A stretch of DNA of 64,000 bases, taken from contig NC_043007.1 in the NCBI RefSeq assembly GCF_006345805.1, forward strand, positions 20,398,001 to 20,462,000. Direction: 5' to 3'. Below, piece after piece: positions 2,557 through 63,620 of the stretch. Under the pieces are notes generated by a model. It had not been told where the DNA came from. It searched no databases and saw only the letters and a list, made by a program, of their open reading frames with translations. The DNA is from Octopus sinensis (taxonomy: Eukaryota). A program made the translations under genes and the position numbers. Each line of letters begins with the position of its first letter. Within the stretch, counting starts at the first letter, position 1.

Positions 2557-3840
2557 GACAGGCTTCTTTCAGTTTCCGTCTACCAAATCCACTCACAAGG
2601 CTTTGGTCAGCCCGAGGCTATAGTAGAAGACACTTGCCCAAGGTGCCACGCAGTGGGACTGAACCCGGAACCATGTGGTTGGTAAGCAAGCTACTTACCA
2701 CACAGTCACTCCTACGCCTTCTATGTCATTAAAATCTTATCCCCTAAGACTTCATTCATTGTCCCAAAGAGGTGGAAGTCAGAGGGTATCAGATCTAGGC
2801 TGTGTGGAAGATGGAGAACCACTGACCAGCCCAGTTTGCCAGTTGCCTGTGGTTATACATTGTCCTGGTCAATGTAAATAGTTTTCAAATTCTTACTCGG
2901 TCACTTCCTCCTAATGGCTTCTCTAAAATATTTGAGATTCTCTGTGTACCATTCAACCGTTCACTGTACAATCATGTTCCAGGAAATTAAGGAAAATGAT
3001 GCCCTTACCATCCTAAAAAAACAGTCATCCTGGTTTTCTGTGTTGTCTGCTGGTTCTTGGACCTTCTAGGCTTTGGAGAAAAGGTATGGCACCATTCCAT
3101 GGACTAAGCCTTTGTTTCCAAGTCATAAAGACACACCAAAGTTTCACCCCCTGATTACCAAATTGGGATAAAAACATCACATCAACATTGGCATCAAATA
3201 TCCCTGCAAATCAAAGCAGGTTTCTACCCTTCTCTCCTTCAAACTGGGTATCACCTGCCAAAGTACCCACTTTGTTCACATTTCTTATTTCTTTACTGCC
3301 CACAGGGGACAAACAAGGACAGACAAACAGATTAAGTCGATTATATCGACCCTAGTGCGTAACTGGTACTTATTTACACGACCCCGAAAGGATGAAAGGC
3401 AAAGTCGACCTCGGCGGAATTTGAACTCAGAACGTAACGACAGATGAAATACTGCCAAGCATTTTGCCTGGCGTGCTAACGATTCTGCCAGCTCGCCACC
3501 TTAACTTTGTTCACACTTTCTGATACCCAAGGCCTTCCATCTTCTGTAATGTAGTACAGTCACAGTCCAGTTTTGCAGCAAGTTCACAGTTTGTGACTCC
3601 TCTGTCCATGCAAATCAATATATCTACTCGTCAGCGATTCATTTCAGTGGTCAGAAATTATTGTCTCTCAATGTGTGATTTTTCTTAAATACCAGTTTCT
3701 CCTTCTTTGAACATTTTCATCCGTCTATGCACATTGCTCACGTCAGCGGTATCATCTTTGTAAACTACCTGTAACATCCTGTGGATATTGGACAGCCTGT
3801 ACCCTTCCTTCATCAGGAACTTTACTTTCGCTTTCAATAA
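2150..3840 (-). mobile_element. Decayed mariner (Tc1/mariner) transposase relic, interrupted by two SINEs
   Basis: - strand fragments: AKVKFLMKEGYRLSNIHRMLQVVYKDD (HTH, ~3750-3830), HSLDLIPSDFHLFG (YSPDLAPSD-like, ~2760-2810), WYKC..CDGDYIE (C-terminus, ~2160-2200). Stops and frameshifts present. Confidence 0.75.
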
Positions 3841-14514: not shown

Positions 14515-14705
14515 TGGATATGTACTTGCATAGCAAGTGACTTGATCTGAGATTGTGTGCTGGAACGAAAACAATTGCAGCACGGAAGGTGTTTATAAGC
14601 CATTTAAGAAACATACAAAACCATTAGATTCACTTCAACATTTAAATTTAATTTGTCAAAATATTTTCGGCGCTTTGAGACCGCGACCTGTTCACTGACA
14701 AAACT
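14515..14705 (-). mobile_element. Penelope-like repeat carrying the variant hammerhead; internally inverted copy at about 51190-51415
   Basis: About 190 bp shared. In the 51 kb copy the first ~80 bp are direct and the remainder is inverted. Confidence 0.55.
14653..14701 (-). ncRNA. Variant hammerhead motif with G3:C8 core (GUGAACA)
   Basis: UUGUCA GUGAACA GGuCGC ggucucaaa GCGCC GAAA AUAU UU UGACAA: 6-bp stem I, stem II closed by G-C, palindromic AAUAUU stem III. Confidence 0.65.
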
Positions 14706-15073
14706 TCTCTGCATCATTTATATATAAATGGATGAATGAATTATCCTTTGTTTACCGTTAACATGGAAAATTCAATAAACAGTTACCAGGGTAGCAAAAT
14801 TCACGCAAGTAACACAGATGAAGTGACCTATTCAAAGGTAGAAACTCCGGGTTTATGTGCAGTAATTTGTATACTCTTTACTTGTTTCAGTCATTTGGCT
14901 GCGGCCATGCTGGAGCACCGCCTTTAGTCGAGCAAATCGACCCCGGGACTTATTCTTTCTAAGCCCAGTACTTATTTTATTGGTCTCTTTTGCTGAACCG
15001 CTAAGTGACAGGGACGTAAACACACCAGCATTGGTTGTCAAGCAATGCTAGGGGTTCAAACACAGACACACAA

Positions 15074-15132
<59 letters not shown>

Positions 15133-15351
15133 TACGACAGGCTTCTTTCAGTTTCCGTCTACCAAATCCACTCACAAGGCATTGGTCGGCCCGGGGCTAT
15201 AGTAGAAGACACTTGCCCAAGATGCCACGCAGTGGGACTGAACCCGGAACCATGTGGTTGGTTAGCAAGATACTTACCACACAGCCACTCCTGCGCCTAT
15301 AGTATAAGTAAAAAAATGGAGTTGAACAAAGATGTTATTAAAATTCTTTTA

Positions 15352-24300: not shown

Positions 24301-25562
24301 GAAACATTAAACTTTCTGATGTCAAATAAATTGTCATTGTCATCATCATCATCATTTAATATCTGTTTTCCATGCTGGTATGGGTTGGACAGTTTGGCAG
24401 GAGCTGGCAAGCCCAGGAACAACATCAGGTTTCATTGTCTGTTTTGGCACGATTTCTACAGCTGGATGCACTTCCTAATATTTGCCATTTTAAAGACTGT
24501 ACTGGGGCATTTTACATGGCACCAGCACCAGTGCTTTTCATGTGGCACCATCAGTAAAATTTTTATTTTTCTAAAATTTTCGTTGTGTCTTGCAACCTTT
24601 CCAATAGTTTTGACTCTATTGAAAAGAGTCAAAACTATTGAAAAGGTTGCAAGATGCAACGAAAATTTTAGGAAAATAAAAATAAGAAAAAGAAAATGGA
24701 AATTTTACCTGTGAGTGTGTTATATTATAAGGCACAAGAAGAAAATGACTCTCCCCAGACACAACAAAATACTCATTAAGTATTATTGCTTTAATCCTTT
24801 AGCATTTGGATTTCTCTCTCAAACATTATGCTTGTTTATTTACACTGTTTTAAACTAAGCATGCTTTATTCTGTACAAAAGTGTGATTGTTTATTTTTAG
24901 AATGACATTGTATGGTAGGTGTAAGAGGCTAGATCTGGTTAGTTTGAACCTAAAATGGGTAGAACGTTGGGGCCAGACATGCTGGATTAAGTGTTAAGGG
25001 GTTACATTTTCTTCTTGAAATTTTCAAGATGTCTTTATTTTCGTTCTCATCTTGCAGGAAACCATAGTATTAGGACAGGCTGAAGGTTGCCGACCATTTT
25101 CTGATCTACTCAGATCAGCAAGTTTTACTTATCCGGATGTACACATTAATCCTCGGAAAGACACAGCTCTTTTGCCATACTCAGCAGGATTATCAGGAAA
25201 ACCTAAAGGTGTAATGCTGACACATCAAAATTTAATTTCTGCCATTGAGGCACTGAGGTACGATCATAATTTATCTTCTCTTTTTATTTTTATATTTTGT
25301 TTTAGTTATTGGACTGTGGCCATGCTGGAGCAACGCCTTGAAGGGTTTTAGTCAAACAAATCAACCCCCCCGGTACTTATTCTTAAAGTCTGGTAACTTA
25401 CTTCTATCAGCATCTTTTACCAAATTTCTAGCTTACAGGAACATAAATAAACCAACACTGGTTGTCAAGCAGTGGCAGTGAGGAACAAACACAAATACAA
25501 AACCACACACACATACACGTGTGCACACACACACATGCACGCATACACACACACTTACACAT

Positions 25563-47200: not shown

Positions 47201-50200
47201 ACGGTGGCTAGCTGGCAGAATCGTTAGCACGCCGGGTGAAGTGCTTAGCGGTATTTCGTCTGCTGTTACGTTCTGAGTTCAAATTCCGCCAAGGTCGACT
47301 TTGCCTTTCATCCTTTCGGGGTTGATTAAATAAGTACCAGTTACGCACTGATGTCGATATAATCGACTTAAACCGTTTATCTGTCCTTGTTTGTCTTCTC
47401 TGTGTTTAGCCCCTTGTGGGTAGTAAAGAAATAAGTACTTACTTTATCAACCCCTAAAGGATGAAAGGCAAGGTAGACCTCAACAGAACTTGAACTCAGA
47501 ACATTAAGATGAATGAAATGCTACTAAGCAATTTGCCAGGTATGCTAATGATTCTGTCAACCTGCTTCCTCAACTGTCACATATTAGGAATTTCTTCTTT
47601 CTGGAAATGTTATCATTCGTGTTAGCAGAAGTTGTATGCTTTTGTAAACTTAGACATTTGTGCTATTGTTTTATGTTAAATGAGAATAGCATCTATGGAT
47701 GGTTAGTCGAGCGCTTACTAAAAAGTATATAACCTTGGAGTAATTAAACAAACACTTAATGACAAATAAAGGGCTTCACTTGATCTGCTTGAAATAGCAT
47801 CTAAATCTCCCTCACTTCATGCCATACAGTCTTAAATAAGGGCAACTAAAGTGGAGAAAGTAATCTGGTGAACAAAAAGAGGGGATGGTCACAGCTAGAA
47901 AGGCTCCGACTGATCAAGGTAGACCTGGAACTAAACAATTTATCCACCAAAAATGCACCAATCTCAGGTTGTATCAAATTATTGATTTGGCGTTAGAAAC
48001 ACTGCCAGACCAGACTGGGGCCTATATCTTCTTTTACAGTTTCATTCATTGGACTTTAACTACGCTGGGACAAGACCTTCAGATTGTCTAATCAATTATA
48101 TCGACTGCAGCACTTAAATCAAATAATCAGTTAGTGAATGGTTAAATTTCCTGTCACGTCGCTGTAGGGAGTTATCTCCCTTCACTCGCTAAACGTCACA
48201 AACAATTTACACTAACTCGCACATATGATCTGCTCCTGTAATATCTCTACCCACCATTCTTTACTCGGAAGTAATTGGTCAATTACTACAGTAAAGATAG
48301 ATCCTGAGGGTGCCACAGTGTTCGTAATCTTTTTCAAAATAAAGTCAAACCTGCACCTACAATTTCTTTTTTGCCTCTCATCCTCTGTTGCACTCTAATC
48401 TCCTCCAACTCTATTTTTTTGCATTCAGCCTATTCCTGTCGCTCTCATCAATTGCTCTTCCAATCAATAATTAAATTATTATTGCAGCTATTATTTATCA
48501 TTACATTCTAAGAGTTTAAATATTAAGGAGGTTGATTTTGTCTTGTGGCACGTAAAAAGCACCATCCGAGCGTGGCCGTTTGCCAGCCTCCCCTGGCACC
48601 TGTGCAGGTGGCACGTAAAAAGCACCCACTACACTCACGGAGTGGTTGGCATTAGGAAGGGCATCCAGCTGTAGAAACACTGCCAGATCAGACTGGGCCT
48701 GGCACAGCCTTCTGGCTTCTCAGACCCCAGCTGAACCGTCCAACCCATGCTAGCATGGAAAACAGACGTTAAACGATGATGATGATGATTCCGTCTAAAA
48801 TCTATAATTAAATTATTAAGTTTCGTTTTTGGATTTGGTTTGCAAAATTCTTTATATGAGTTTGTGTGTTGAAGCATATTCTGTTGTGTCTAGGGAGAGT
48901 CATTCTCTTTTTGTGCCTTATTATGCAACACACTCACCGGTAAAATTTCCACCTTTTTCTTATTTTTATTGTTCTAAAATTTTCGTTGCGTCTTGCTACC
49001 TTTTCAATAGTTTTGGGAGTCAAAACTATTGAAAAGGTTGAAGCATATACTGTTGCGTCTGGGGAGAGTCATTCTCTTTTGGTGCCTTGTGGTTTAACAC
49101 GTTCACCGGTGGAGTTTCCACTTATTTCTTTTTAATTTTTCTAAGGTTTTCGTTGCATCTTGCAACCTTTTCAATAATTTTGAGAGTCAAAACTATTGAA
49201 AAGGTTGCAAAATGCAACGGAAATTTTAGGAAAATATAAATAGGTGCAGGAGTGGCTGTGTGGTAAGTAGCTTGCTAACCAACCACATGGTTTCGGGTTC
49301 AGTCCCACTGTGTGGCATCTTGGGCAAGTGTCTTCTGCTATAGCCCCGGGCCGACCAATGCCTTGTGAGTGGATTTGGTAGACGGAAACTGAAAGAAGCC
49401 TGTCGTATATATGTATATATATATATATATATGTGTGTATGTTTGTCCCCCCAACATCGCTTGACAACCGATGCTGGTGTGTTTACGTCCCCGTCACTTA
49501 GCGGTTCGGCAAAAGAGACCGATAGAATAAGTACTGGGCTTACAAAGAATAAGTCCCGGGGTCGATTTGCTCGACTAAAAAGGCGGTGCTCCAGCATGGC
49601 CGCAGTCAAATGACTGAAACAAGTAAAAAAAGAAAAAAAGAGAAATAAGAAAAAAAGTGGAAATTTTACCGGTGAGTGTGTTACATAATAAGGCACAAAA
49701 AGAAATGATTCCCTCCAGACACAACAGAATAAATTATTAAGAGGTTGATTTTGTCTTTTATTTCATCTAAAATCCGTAAGATTATACCTCTTCTACTATA
49801 AATATGCAGTCTGGTATCGATATAAAACCTCACCATTATGTATTATTACTGAATGTGTATCAACATACATTATCATTATTGCATTATATGTTTGTGTTAT
49901 GGGAGAATCCCAAACACCTCAGCATGTCTGAAGAGAGACTCACCGATTACAGAAGAAATGAGTGAACCGTCAGTAGCTGAACAGTGACTATTGAGTATTG
50001 TACCTACATTTGAGTAATATGAAGTGAATACAGTGTTAACATGTGTCTATAATAGGTTATTTTTACATAACTACAACCACCTCTCTCTCTTTTACTCTTT
50101 TACTTGTTTCAGTCATTTGACTACAGCCATGCTGGAGCACCGTCTTTAATCGAGCAAGTCGGCCCCAGGACTTATTCTTTTGTAAGCCCAGTATTTATTC

Positions 50201-50327: not shown

Positions 50328-53086
50328 CATATATACGACAGGCTTCTTTCAGTTTCTGTCTACCAAATCCACTCACAAGGCTTTGGTCGGCCCAAGGCTA
50401 TAGGAGAAGACACTTGCCCAAGGTGCCACGCAGTGGGACTGAACCATGTGGTTGGTAAACAAGCTACTTACCACACAGCCACTCCTGCGCCTATTTATTT
50501 GTGTAATAATATTTTACGCCAGACATGTATATCCACGCCATATCAGTTTGTTATTTTAAAATGTATTAATCATTATTACAATTTGGATTACAATGAATTT
50601 TTCCAAATGGATTTCTCACCTGCGTTTGCATTATCTGGATTTTTATCAGGATGGCATTTCAGAGCTTTTTTTCTGTAGGCTGAAATAATCTGGGGGAAAA
50701 AAAATAAAAGAACAAATAAACATTACGTACAAGTAAAATTCCATTCAAACTTTTCATTCAACTTAAAGCAGCTTCATAACGATATGTTCTTGTTTCAAAT
50801 AGTCTGTACAAGAAAGGTCCACAAGGCCCCTGGGGTGTCCATATAAGATTTTGTTGCAATACACAAAATCATCATCATCGTTTAACGTCCATTCTCCATG
50901 CTAGCAGGGGTTGGACTGTTCGACTGGGGATCTGGGAAGCCAGGAGGCTGCACCAGGCTCCAGTCTGATTTGGCAGTGTTTCTACAGCTGGATGCCCTTC
51001 CTAACGCCAACCACTCCGTGAGTGTAGTGGGTGCTTTTTACGTGCCAGGGGAGGCTGCCAGCAGCCATGATCAGATTGGTGCATTTTACGTGCCACCGGC
51101 ACGGAAGCCAGTCGAGGTGGCTCTGGCAATCGGCCAAAAATATTTTGACAATTTCTTATACAATTCCTAAAAATTATAAAAGTATATTACGGAGATGTAC
51201 TTGCATAGCAAGTGACCTGATCTGAGATCGTGTGCTGGAACGAAAACAATTGCAGCGTGTATGGTGTTTAGCACGGAATTTTGTCAGTGAACAGGTCGCG
51301 GTCTCAAAGCGCCGAAAATATTTTGACAACTTAAATTTAAATGTTGAAGTGAATCTAACGGATTTTGTGTGTTTCTTAAATGGCTTATAAACACCTTCCA
51401 TGCTGCAATTGTTTATAAAAATATAATAGAATTTTTTTTTTTAAATCAAAATAGATGAACATCAATGGAATTTGTATCCTTGTGGTACCAGTGCCGGTGG
51501 CACATAAGAAAACCATCCGAACGTGATCGTAGCCAGTACCGCAACGACTGGCCTCCGTGCTGAAGGCACGTAACAAACACCATCCGAGCGTGGTCGTCCG
51601 CCAGCCCCGTCTGGCACCTGTGTCGGTGACACATAAGAAAACACCATCCGAGCGTGGCCGTCAGCCAGCCTCGTCTGGCACCTGTGTCGGTGGCACATAA
51701 AAAACACCATCCGAGCGTGGCCGTCTGCCAGCCTCGTCTGGCACCTGTGTCGGTGGCACATAAAATCACCCACTACACTCTCGGAGTGGTTGGCGTTAGG
51801 AAGGGCATCCAGCTGTAGAAACACTGCCAGATCTGACTGGCCTGGTGCAGCCTTCGGGCTTGCCAGACCCCAGTTGAACCGTCCAACCCATGCTAGCATG
51901 GAAAGCGGACGTTAAACGATGATGATGATTAGATGGGAATGGGGGTCCACCCGAGTAAAATAGGAATCAAAAGGATCCAAAGGTAAAAATGGTTGAGAAC
52001 TACTGCTCTATATGATCACAAGACCTGCTAAAAGTAGCAGCCAAATTTCCTTCAAATCGCACCTTACTACTCATTACATAATAGTCCGAAGAATGATGTT
52101 TGAGAGGTCAGTTACAGTTGAAACCTCTTTGAAGAAAGAGCTGCCTGACTTGGGTTGACTTGGAGTCAAACAACTTGACTATATTCAGAACATGTTCTAA
52201 AATACACCGGTCATATGTTTCTTTTTCTCTTTCTCTCAGACATACTATCTCCATTACATAGTAGACCTGAAACTAAATATCAAACACTTTGCCTAATTAA
52301 CGTATTTTAAGGAACACTTTTTTGTCAAAAATTAGGTTAAAAAATATGGGAGTTTCTTATACATGGATAGTATTATAATCCCTTTAAAAAATCTCTTTTC
52401 CAAATTTTAAGCCCCAAAAATTAGGGGGTTCCTTATACACGTTAAATACGGTACTTCTGGTTAGAATTCTAGCAGCCTTTTGGCGTTATTATAATAATGA
52501 AATTGTTGTATACAGTGCTCAGGTGCACCACAACTTGGCAAAAAGTGCGTATAAAGTATATGCAGTAATGTACAAATCAAATATACAAATTTTAGATTCC
52601 TATCAAATATACAAATATAATTGCTTGTATCCCTCTGAAACTTGGTTTAGTCTCATTTATTAAAGGTCACTCATTAACTTGAAACATCGGTAAATCTTAC
52701 CCATTAACGCAATGTTTAAAAAGGAGCGAAACAGCGCCATCCTTTCTTTGCACCAAACATTAGGGTTCTTTCCATCACAGATCCACTTTAAAAAATACAT
52801 TATTAAAACCCAAAACAAAAAGTAAACTTCTTCTCTGGTTGTATAATCCAGTAAGACTACATACAAGTTCAAAATCCGCATTTAATCGATAAGCTGGAAT
52901 ATTTAAATTTGAATTCATACTTTCGAAGGTTGTAAATATTTTCGCAAACTTCCTCAGTTTCAAAGTAAGATATTAGCAAATCGCTCCATGGAGCTAAGGT
53001 TACCAAGAGACATCTTTCGGTACAAGTACCATAACTGCCAAGTCTGTTTGTTTACATCTGAAGAAGATCGTCACTTTCTGTAAAGT

Positions 53087-53151
<65 letters not shown>

Positions 53152-54212
53152 GGGTTAGGGTTAGAGTTTGGATTAGGGGTGGGAGAAAAGGGTTACTTTT
53201 TTCTTCAGAAATGTAAATAAACCCACGTGGGTTTATAATTGGCAGTACTTGTACCGAAAGATCGCCAATAGAAGATTGACCAAATATTTCATTTAAATTT
53301 ATCCGGGAAGTAAAAGTTATATCTCGTTCTTGGATCTGGTTTGCAAGATTCTTTATATGAGTTCGTGTGTTGAAGCTTATTCTGTTGTGTCTGGGGAAAT
53401 ATTTCATTTAAACTTATCCGGGAAGTAAAAGTTATATCTCGTTCTTGGATCTGGTTTGCAAGATTCTTTATATGAGTTCGTGTGTTGAAGCACATTCTGT
53501 TGTATCTGGGGAGAGTTATTTCCTTTTTGTGCCTCTTATAATGTAACACACTCACCGGTAAAATTTCCGTTGCGTTTTGAAACCTTTTCAATAGTCAAGA
53601 CTATTGAAAAAGTTGTAAGACGCAACGAAAATTTTAGGAAAATAAAAATAAGAAATAAGTAGAAATTTTACCGGTGAATGTGTTACATTGTAAGGCACAA
53701 AATGAAAATGACTCTCCCCAGACACAACAAAAGTAATATCGTAAATGTTTATAATTTCCTATTTCTTTTCTACCCACAAGGGGCTAAAAACACAGAGGGG
53801 ACAGTGCGAAACTGGTACTTTATTTATCGACCCCGAAACAATGAAAGGCAAAGTCGACCTCGGCAGAATTTGAACTCAGCGTTAACGACAGACGAAATAC
53901 CGCTAGACATTTCGCCCGGCGTGCTAACGATTCTGCCAGCTCGCCGCCTTCATAAATATTTATAATTTCCATTATTCTTTCTAATTATTCCCGATGTGAA
54001 TGTAACTACAAATGACATTTATAATAATAATAATAATGAAATTATTGTATACAGTGCTCACGTGTACCACAACATTTGTTTACTATTTTCTCCCAAATCG
54101 TAAAATTTCTGTAGACAGGTCAACAATAAAGCCATACCTCTTTCTTAGTGGCTGTTTCATCTATTTGGAGGAGAGAATATAGATCTAATTTCGTAATATC
54201 GGTTGCTGCCAT
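37504..54212 (-). CDS. DNAJC17: DnaJ homolog subfamily C member 17 (J-domain, coiled coil, RRM), 11 exons, 324 aa
   Basis: Exons on - strand (GT-AG, total 975 nt): 54212-54138, 50689-50620, 47074-47016, 46478-46391, 44980-44904, 44193-44076, 43135-43107, 41740-41663, 39565-39485, 38569-38447, 37680-37504. Motifs: DLYSLL..AYRKKALKCHPDKNPDN (HPD), IERLQKEGSKLL, PRLKIKWK..NGGY..FSKYGEV, NPLTLSW, FESLVLRRLRQAEERKRL. AATAAA on - strand near 37326. Confidence 0.95.
37943..38033 (-). ncRNA. Type I minimal hammerhead motif with palindromic stem III, DNAJC17 intron 10, sense
   Basis: AAUUGG CUGAUGA GUACU...(UGUUGUAA uac UUACAACA)...AGUAU GAAA CGAUCG UA CCAAAUU. The stem III palindrome is ACGAUCGU; predicted cut after GUA at 37950/37949. 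Confidence 0.8.
46838..46900 (-). ncRNA. Type I hammerhead ribozyme motif (canonical core) in a Penelope-like repeat, DNAJC17 intron 3, sense
   Basis: - strand reads UUUAUCG CUGAGGA GGGG(aaaauuc uuau gaauuaa)CCCC GAAA UUGG ga CCAA UA CGAUAAA. Stem I is 7 bp, stems II and III are intact, and the predicted cut is after AUA at 46845/46844. Confidence 0.85.
48790..49735. repeat. Fold-back (palindromic) repeat family; other copies at about 24560-24780 and 53285-53735
   Basis: Arms such as CACCGGTAAAATTTCC...AAATTTTCGTTGCGTCTTGCAACCTTTTCAATAG face their reverse complements across a short centre. This copy is interrupted by a SINE at 49241-49640. Confidence 0.8.
51281..51329 (+). ncRNA. Second, identical copy of the G3:C8 variant hammerhead motif
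   Basis: The 49 nt are identical to the reverse complement of 14653-14701. Confidence 0.65.
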
Positions 54213-56275: not shown

Positions 56276-56839
56276 ATGAAGACGATTTACGCTGACCAGA
56301 CTGTGAACGTGCCGGATGGAGTGACGGTAAAAGTTAGTTCGAGGCGTGTGACGGTTACTGGTCCTCGCGGGACCCTGTATCGAAACTTCCGACACCTTTT
56401 CATCACAATTACCCTGCCTAGGAAGAACCTCGTCAAAGTCGAAAAATACTTCGGTAAGAGGAAAGAATTGGCCGCCGTGCGCACTGTTTGCACTCATATT
56501 GAGAATATGATCAAGGGTGTTACCAAAGGGTTCCGTTACAAGATGAGGTCTGTTTATGCCCATTTCCCAATCAACGTTGTGGTATTGAATGGCGGCAATG
56601 CCGTTGAAATCAGAAATTTCCTTGGAGAGAAATTTGCCCGACATGTGGAAATGTTACCTGGTGTTATGTTCTCTGTATCGACGGCGCAAAAGGATGAATT
56701 CGTCTTAGAAGGAAATGATATCGAGTTGGTTTCCAGATCAGCTGCCCTCATCCAACAGTCAACATCAGTGAAAGAAAAAGATATAAGAAAGTTCTTGGAT
56801 GGCATTTACGTATCCGAGAAAGGTACTATACAGGAATAA
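56276..56839 (+). CDS. RPL9: 60S ribosomal protein L9 (uL6), 187 aa, single coding exon
   Basis: Uninterrupted ORF with [55 protein letters not shown]. Splice acceptor at 56263-56264 (TTTTAG) just before the ATG; AATAAA signals near 56899 and 56923. Confidence 0.97.
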
Positions 56840-63154: not shown

Positions 63155-63620
63155 GAAGGGGGTGTGAATTGGACTTCCTGGAAAGGCCTGAGAGAGGGTG
63201 AGTGGGACTTGCTGGAAAATTCCAAGGAGAGGAGAAAGGACTTCTTTGGAAAAGTCCAGGAGGGGTAGGGGCTTCCTGGAAAAGTCTGAGGAGGGGGTAA
63301 AGACTTCCTGGAAAAGTCCAAGGAGGAGGTGGGCATTTCCTCGAAAAGACTGAAAGGGGTGCACCTCCTAGAAAAGTCTAGGGATGGGACTTCCTGGAAA
63401 AGCCTGCAGAGGGGCTAGGGACTTCCTGGAATAGTCCAAGAAGGGGCTAGGGATTTCCTGGAAGTCTGAGGAGGGAGTGGGTACTTCCTGGAAAAGTCCG
63501 AGTAGAGGTGGAACTTCCTAGAAAAGACCGAGGAGGGGCAGGAAGGACTTCCTGGGAAAGTCCAAGGAGCGGTGGGATTTCCTGGAAAAGCTAGAGGATG
63601 AGGTGGGCCTTCCTGAAAAA
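63155..63620. repeat. About 31-bp minisatellite, about 15 units
   Basis: Consensus close to GGGACTTCCTGGAAAAGTCCGAGGAGGGGT, with an internal GGACTT/AAGTCC inverted repeat. Confidence 0.9.

Follow-up and report, generated by a model that had tools for sequence, protein, structure and literature searches.

Minimal hammerhead ribozymes of Penelope-like elements (PLEs) are described, in the available part of PMC4209133, as type I motifs of the PLE terminal repeat (pLTR) that possess an extra nucleotide separating positions 9 and 10.1, a G10.1-C11.1 pair and a short palindromic stem III. They come with a U-rich 5′ flank, as thousands of solo truncated copies and as inverted pairs. The hammerhead of Octopus sinensis analyzed here shares these traits. 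Unlike the motifs described there, however, it has a G3:C8 core, and all four Watson-Crick 3:8 pairs are found within this one genome. A U3-A8 variant is known from a Schistosoma PLE hammerhead, and none of the 56 rows of Fig. S3 in that part of the paper contains G3:C8 or A3:U8. The extra nucleotide is G in the octopus motif, as in one row of the figure, against a consensus of H. U17 occurs in 24 of the 56 PLE hammerheads and the triplet UUU once, in Crassostrea gigas, indicating that the word "unusual", applied to the UUU cleavage triplet in the original prediction, is overstated.

A second close relative is PAc, the Poseidon element of Anolis carolinensis, as characterized in the accessible portion of PMC11167929. 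Its RT with C-terminal GIY-YIG domain, its hammerhead at the pLTR-ORF junction, its two fixed 3′ ends inside the ORF start (the "tail") and its AT-rich targets all appear to have octopus counterparts. It differs in possessing a C3:G8 core and an ORF that starts inside stem II, whereas here the core is G3:C8, the ORF starts 57 nt after the predicted cut, and the tail is about 55 nt, unlike that of PAc. Engineering of C3G/G8C in PAc rescued cleavage partially, and the PLE protein was needed for cleavage. The same portion of that study found that cleavage could be dispensed with in vitro, and none of its RNA reads had an end at the site. A separate remark, given as "data not shown", holds that the activity of G3-C8 is higher when position 17 is G than when it is C (PMC3884650).

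Dimer-cleaving PLE variants (Lunse, Weinberg and Breaker, as far as covered by the review PMC6765202) resemble the octopus motif in their diminished stem III, in PLE association and in cleavage as a dimer, which is predicted here. Covariation at 3:8 in nature is also known from natural hammerhead core variants, of which the available text of PMC3088659 reports only U3-A8. Penelope of Drosophila virilis, going by the accessible accounts of it, likewise has a small palindromic stem III, with a 2-nt insertion, and its pLTR intron has a 3′ end adjoining helix I, a feature comparable to the branch-point/pyrimidine/AG-like signal that here stops 14 nt before stem I; it differs in its canonical CUGAAGA core and 2-bp helix I. 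The loop I-loop II tertiary contact of fast hammerheads is not described for PLE minimal hammerheads. A literature search for natural G3:C8 or A3:U8 returned, in the text available, only engineered G3-C8 (PMC3884650, PMC11167929) and natural U3-A8; Lunse 2017 and Przybilski and Hammann 2007 may list G3:C8. The accessible parts of PMC6155905, PMC13481778 and the supplement of PMC8557442 (whose octopus rows are Naiads) hold nothing on G3:C8. PLE hammerheads, dimer dependence, U3-A8 and U17 are already published, and priority for natural G3:C8 is uncertain. The present locus adds copy number, a coding parent, four-way covariation and a 5′-end map.

Two identical G3:C8 hammerheads in the window

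By sequence and by a descriptor scan, the window (the whole 64,000-nucleotide stretch of O. sinensis DNA analyzed) contains a type I minimal hammerhead at 14653..14701 on the minus strand and an identical one at 51281..51329 on the plus strand. Reverse-complemented, 14653-14701 is identical to 51281-51329 at every letter, confirming the original prediction of one 49-nt motif present twice; the strand of copy 1 had been left unstated. The motif runs in the order stem I (UUGUCA), core (GUGAACA, that is, G3 U4 G5 A6 A7 C8 A9), extra G, stem II, GAA, AAUAUU, U17 and the other strand of stem I (UGACAA). In copy 1, stem I pairs 14701-14696 with 14658-14653, G3 is at 14695, C8 at 14690, the extra G at 14688, stem II at 14687-14669, G12 at 14668, the AAUAUU palindrome at 14665-14660 and U17 at 14659, with the predicted cut between 14659 and 14658. 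The corresponding positions of copy 2 are 51287 for G3, 51292 for C8 and 51323 for U17, with a predicted cut at 51323/51324. As had been claimed, the core changes are limited to C3>G and G8>C: the literal consensus (C3 U4 G5 A6 N7 G8 A9 / G12 A13 A14 A15.1 / U16.1 H17) is matched everywhere except at positions 3 and 8, and the Watson-Crick 3:8 pair, which is the structural requirement behind this consensus (PMC3884650), is present as G3:C8. Predicted folding agrees with a stem I of 6-7 bp and a stem II of 5 bp, and forms stem III only as an intermolecular palindrome.

When the descriptor was allowed any Watson-Crick 3:8 pair (stem I of at least 4 bp), its matches in the window were exactly the two copies, and 60 dinucleotide shuffles gave 0 matches. 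An Rfam scan of the window gave no hammerhead match, even at E<=1. The copies share 136 nt at 96%, with 0/49 differences in the motif versus 5/87 in the flanks (Fisher p=0.16), a contrast too small to carry the claim that an identical motif beside differing flanks indicates selection. Identity of the motif is uncommon among same-subfamily pairs (13/1,370), a figure that has to be read with the window pair having been picked out for being identical. Because the copies lie 36.6 kb apart on opposite strands, they cannot make a cis dimer. They are inert, dead-on-arrival fragments, of no special importance in themselves. The predicted hammerhead fold, G3:C8 as a fixed compensatory swap and a palindromic stem III suited to a dimer draw their support from the family and its sister families, and none of it from the window pair. 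At 51133-51154 (+), 38 nt ahead of copy 2's inverted arm, 22 nt partially match the ribozyme's 3′ half, either by chance or as an aborted copy.

The host is a Penelope-like element terminal repeat

As a type I minimal hammerhead, the motif sits in the pLTR of a Penelope-like element of high copy number; the original prediction recognized the motif and missed this host, a retroelement. The surrounding ~204 nt are a high-copy repeat in the 2.7-Gb genome, with 1,742 exact genome-wide matches to a 26-mer that spans the core and leaves positions 3 and 8 free, and 5,395 to a 25-mer outside the ribozyme. The host fragment of copy 1, 14517..14715 (-), is the 3′ end of the pLTR, covering element positions 3-204 (BLAST to a natural copy, L005, 94.6%), and ends at the long ("tail") end, adjoining a (TA)n tract. 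It includes a remnant of the PLE ORF start at 14517..14603 (-), with the ATG at 14603-14601, which continues in frame into the RT ORF in loci L186 and L190. By sequence comparison, copy 2 lies in an arm at 51270..51414 (+), comprising element positions 8-152 and the short 3′ end, which is joined by an inverted, 5′-truncated second arm at 51192..51270 (-), comprising positions 126-204 and the long end. This head-to-head layout is typical of PLE insertions, as described in the available part of PMC8557442.

An arm sample was drawn from 80 loci picked by the non-ribozyme 25-mer; after 4 duplicate loci and duplicated arms were dropped, it comprised 135 arms. Their 3′ ends cluster at positions 146-153 (46/135) and 200-204 (74/135), their 5′ ends are variable, and the arms are often head to head. 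A flank of at least 80% AT adjoins 43 of 55 long ends, and 38 of the 55 have a TA repeat. Such a truncated, inverted, tailed layout is the one shown by Penelope-like elements (PMC8557442 and PMC11167929, in the parts accessible). The features of PLE minimal hammerheads are present as well, namely the extra nucleotide 9a, G10.1-C11.1, palindromic 15.2-16.2 and location in a pLTR.

We asked whether the window loci could instead hold a retrozyme-like or host-domesticated ribozyme, acting in circular RNA replication or gene regulation. Copies are short, numerous and non-coding, two of them are identical, and animal retrozymes have been reported to derive from PLE pLTRs (bioRxiv 10.64898/2026.07.22.740005). 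Yet the copies are solo or head-to-head with no head-to-tail arrays, their motif is uncut, they end at the two fixed PLE ends given above, and locus-specific conservation is absent, making this reading very improbable. A non-LTR retrozyme was rejected, as same-strand close pairs are segmental duplications and copies extend into coding PLE.

Short copies of the PLE repeat pile up at the 5′ sequence G-AG-ATG (element positions 1-4; copy 1 starts there, at 14715; L217, L218 and L185 upstream). Of 37 short arms that end in AG, 25 have G at the first position, as against 0 of the 46 arms extending into the parent, where it is C or T and lies inside a conserved branch-point/pyrimidine/AG-like signal that stops before stem I. 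Short arms with the G-AG-ATG start showed no common sequence further upstream. The 5′ G may be either a cap-derived extra G at a transcription start or a trace of splicing.

A coding parent

Some arms extend upstream as far as the end of an ORF, across ~1 kb rich in microsatellites, the hammerhead sitting ~1 kb behind the endonuclease end. Among the best 30 endonuclease-end loci, 24 have the element downstream on the same strand. In L186 and L190 the element has an ATG at position 119 and passes from there, without a change of frame, into the RT ORF (in L190 the ORF meets a stop after 105 codons), so that both insertion ends fall within the ORF start, as in the anole PLE. The parent protein, P0002, corresponds to a stop-free frame of 1,042 aa that contains YVDD and, C-terminally, the motif VYQIKC..YIGET. 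It had no significant Pfam match of its own to RT or GIY-YIG, and a PDB sequence search with it gave 0 matches. A homologue, P0084, matches PF01541 at 6.6e-7 and RVT_1 weakly, and the PF01541 loci L051 and L036 show 49% identity to the C-terminal part of the parent protein. Judged by motifs and homologues, the parent is a putative single-ORF protein of ~1,000 aa of RT + GIY-YIG type. A Cx3CxxC linker before the endonuclease fits Neptune/Nematis, when set against the published description only (PMC8557442, available part), and identity to another PLE family, L041, is only 21%.

An intact single pLTR-ORF-pLTR copy was not seen among the loci. Segmental duplication accounts for three closely spaced copy pairs (L031-L033) and a tandem of 4 kb (L094/L095) that had been considered as full elements. 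The dominant 781-aa GIY-YIG family was rejected as the parent, its DNA match being no longer than 14 nt.

Conservation within the G3:C8 family

At loci picked without using the core, G3:C8 is present in 116 of 126 arms and C3:G8 in none. Counting by eye the first 100 listed of the 1,742 core matches gave 90 with G3:C8, the rest being single changes. Double variants at 3 and 8 number only 10 genome-wide, none of them C3:G8 and two A3:U8, and G3:C8 is fixed in two subfamilies. As had been predicted, G3:C8 is a fixed compensatory swap, with other Watson-Crick pairs in sister families. The usual stem II of the family is a perfect 5-bp GUCGC/GCGAC, with the extra G between A9 and G10.1. The GCGCC of the window copies is a minority form: in the column of its C, A is found in 97/106 arms and C in 3/106. 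The bulged stem drawn in the original prediction is therefore not the usual one. The commonest stem variant, A>G in 20/112 arms, retains a U-G pair.

The subfamilies differ at 15 columns, distributed as 5/9 in loop II, 1/42 in core and stems (loss of one U from the far end of stem I) and 9/127 elsewhere. The contrast between loop II and core plus stems gives p=3e-4, where the loop II changes may be one event; that between core plus stems and the non-loop remainder is not significant (p=0.45). Rare post-insertion substitutions occur at 79/3,495 (2.3%) in core and stems versus 212/10,029 (2.1%) in the rest. These equal rates indicate that genomic copies decay neutrally and that any selection acted on source elements. 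Across parents at ~80-96% endonuclease identity the core is unchanged, while loop II is variable. As a weak check, contigs of four sequencing runs had variants of at least 3% in loop II and as A>G stem changes, and none in the core.

A head-to-head composite of arms 8-147 and 28-204 with the same junction was observed at L072, L081, L111, L112, L122, L123, L133, L140 and L143 (also L031 and L033). At nine loci its long arm begins inside the core (position 28), without the first core bases, and G10.1-C11.1 is broken at 5 of the 9. The composite appears to have been copied as a unit despite the incomplete core of its long arm.

Covariation of the 3:8 pair across families

A sister family with a UUU site has 2,029 matches, with U3:A8 in 95 of 100 listed. 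It is represented in the window by an inverted pair at 24559..24764 (core starts at 24638 (+)) and by further arms at 48880..49246 and at 53496..53727 (core starts at 53604 (+)). Sub-threshold miRNA-like Rfam matches at 24559-24764, 49050-49246 and 53496-53727 are hairpins of inverted U3:A8 arms; inverted PLE arms of this kind are a likely source of false miRNA calls. A C3:G8 sister family (L194-L197, L082:1237) possesses a non-palindromic stem III and, in 8 of 9 arms listed, C at position 9, a sign that this clade tolerates change in the core; a relative of this family, L121:672, has a canonical core. The G3:C8, U3:A8 and C3:G8 families are related clades at 42-58% endonuclease identity, with the same architecture and the hammerhead in the same place. 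Each is well supported in a FastTree of endonucleases, which is unrooted and does not give the order of changes.

A more distant PLE family (L052:2072, L254-L259) carries A3:U8 together with a GUC site, a 2-bp stem II and an ACCGGU palindrome; at <=1 mismatch it has 191 matches, with A3:U8 in 99 of 100 listed. A second, more distant U3:A8 family comprises 8 loci. U3:A8 hammerhead-like motifs with the ACCGGU palindrome, some with a weak stem II, were noticed at L046, L047, L048, L197:6489, L198:5242 and L210:1267. The descriptor found no hammerhead at 16 loci of more distant relatives, where two sister motifs were then spotted by eye, and none was found at 8 older loci of 62-75% identity.

As read from the sequences, all four Watson-Crick forms of the 3:8 pair occur, fixed in different families within a single genome, and this covariation across families is the strongest evidence. 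Together with it, G5, A6, G12, A13, A14 and H17 are kept in the G3:C8, U3:A8 and A3:U8 families. The neutral decay of genomic copies and the non-significant subfamily test against non-loop sequence would also suit a dead relic, in which a founder drifted to G3:C8 and the motif hitchhikes in the pLTR unconstrained. Such a relic is quite unlikely, however, given a chance of ~0.4% (assuming independence and equal base use) that four non-canonical families would all fix a Watson-Crick 3:8 pair, and given a core that stayed the same over the range of endonuclease identities in which loop II varied.

Modest evidence for cleavage at the predicted site

Copying of cut RNA would be expected to produce arms that begin at position 62 (U1.1). 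In the 5′-end map, matches with a non-T just before positions 62, 61, 63 and 70 numbered 97, 79, 159 and 152, of which 50, 30, 70 and 50, respectively, were classed as truncation or point change. Truncations made up 33 of the 50 classified at position 62, or an estimated ~64 of 97, as compared with estimates of 26, 23 and 15 at positions 61, 63 and 70. The resulting excess over the control mean is 2.9 (1.8-4.6); it is 2.4 without hairpin-microhomology junctions and 2.1 (1.3-3.5) when TA-flank cases are removed as well. The first estimate of 24/30 (~78) became 33/50 (~64) with more loci, and the excess rests on three control positions, includes some duplicated loci and concerns a site at the foot of a hairpin. 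Position-62 starts are of the order of 1-2% of arms, as inferred from the 5,395 matches, and a sample of 127 arms showed no excess around the cut, with 5 starts in positions 61-70. The excess at the predicted cut may be taken as modest evidence of in vivo cleavage. The uncut motif is kept by most arms, 81/127 beginning at or before position 20, and uncut RNA was the source of most copies.

Folding predictions put the cost of closing stem III in a monomer at ~5 kcal/mol. For L005, the double hammerhead reaches -24.0 kcal/mol versus -23.4 kcal/mol for two open monomers, and inactive dimers are lower still, at -26.4 kcal/mol (a 10-bp palindrome sequestering A13/A14) and -29.0 kcal/mol (the cofold optimum). 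These predictions fit a slow ribozyme that would depend on a dimer or on protein, as reported for PLE motifs.

We favor, as probable on balance, a family-wide G3:C8 hammerhead of the PLE pLTR that is likely to undergo slow self-cleavage after U17, probably in dimeric form or assisted by the element's protein. In tandem or read-through PLE transcripts, two motifs would pair through AAUAUU into stem III. G3:C8 would retain the tertiary pair that positions nucleotide 8. With U17 instead of C17, a dead-end G3-C17 pair may be avoided, as the analogous case of C3-G17 and the remark in PMC3884650 suggest. Cleavage would shorten the precursor, leaving an RNA whose 5′ end lies 57 nt ahead of the ORF. 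If cutting is inefficient or late, most copies would be reverse-transcribed from uncut RNA.

The motif might otherwise be a structure that does not cleave and that serves the PLE protein as a binding or folding site or acts before the ORF as a translation or splicing element, with the 3:8 pair kept for shape. That templates were mostly uncut and that the energy minimum is not the active dimer would agree with this, and so would the anole PLE, whose hammerhead mutants had no effect on insertion in vitro (PMC11167929, accessible portion); the available part of PMC4209133 allows functions other than cleavage. The A9C sister family and the core-less composite both spread, and the spread of the latter counts against cleavage being necessary. 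Against such a structure, three families retain G12, A13, A14, G5, A6 and H17 together with the 3:8 pair, and 5′ ends are in excess at the exact bond. We therefore hold a non-cleaving structure to be somewhat unlikely and retain the slowly cleaving pLTR hammerhead as the preferred reading.

More tentatively, and with rather less confidence than an even bet, the PLE lineages here may run working hammerheads through all four 3:8 pairs, in which pairing between positions 17 and 3 is avoided. The 5′-end pile-up could then be a fossil record of in vivo cutting and of cut RNA that is retrotransposable, and searches for CUGANGA would miss such motifs. If this is true, PLE families called hammerhead-less may conceal such motifs; descriptors fixed on C3/G8 or U3/A8, and Rfam, overlook whole families. 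In vitro rates of PLE hammerheads are low, and it was the single biochemical study of a PLE that found cleavage dispensable (PMC11167929). Thousands of copies per family together with four core pairs would provide evolutionary evidence for selection on active-site geometry, and the octopus families supply a genome-only test, the 5′-end map, as well as a panel of natural variants.

Other features of the window

At 56276-56839 (+), the window contains an intact, intron-less ORF of ~187 codons belonging to the ribosomal protein L6/L9 family (Pfam PF00347, E=3e-31). It is preceded by a pyrimidine tract and AG, and is either a single-exon gene or a young retrocopy. A G-rich tandem repeat with a 32-nt period and ~14.5 copies spans 63171-63620. 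Other abundant, SINE-like repeat families occupy many sites (e.g. 15100-15300, 3270-3500 and 51565-51765), and one such family has internal tandem units of 63-67 nt.
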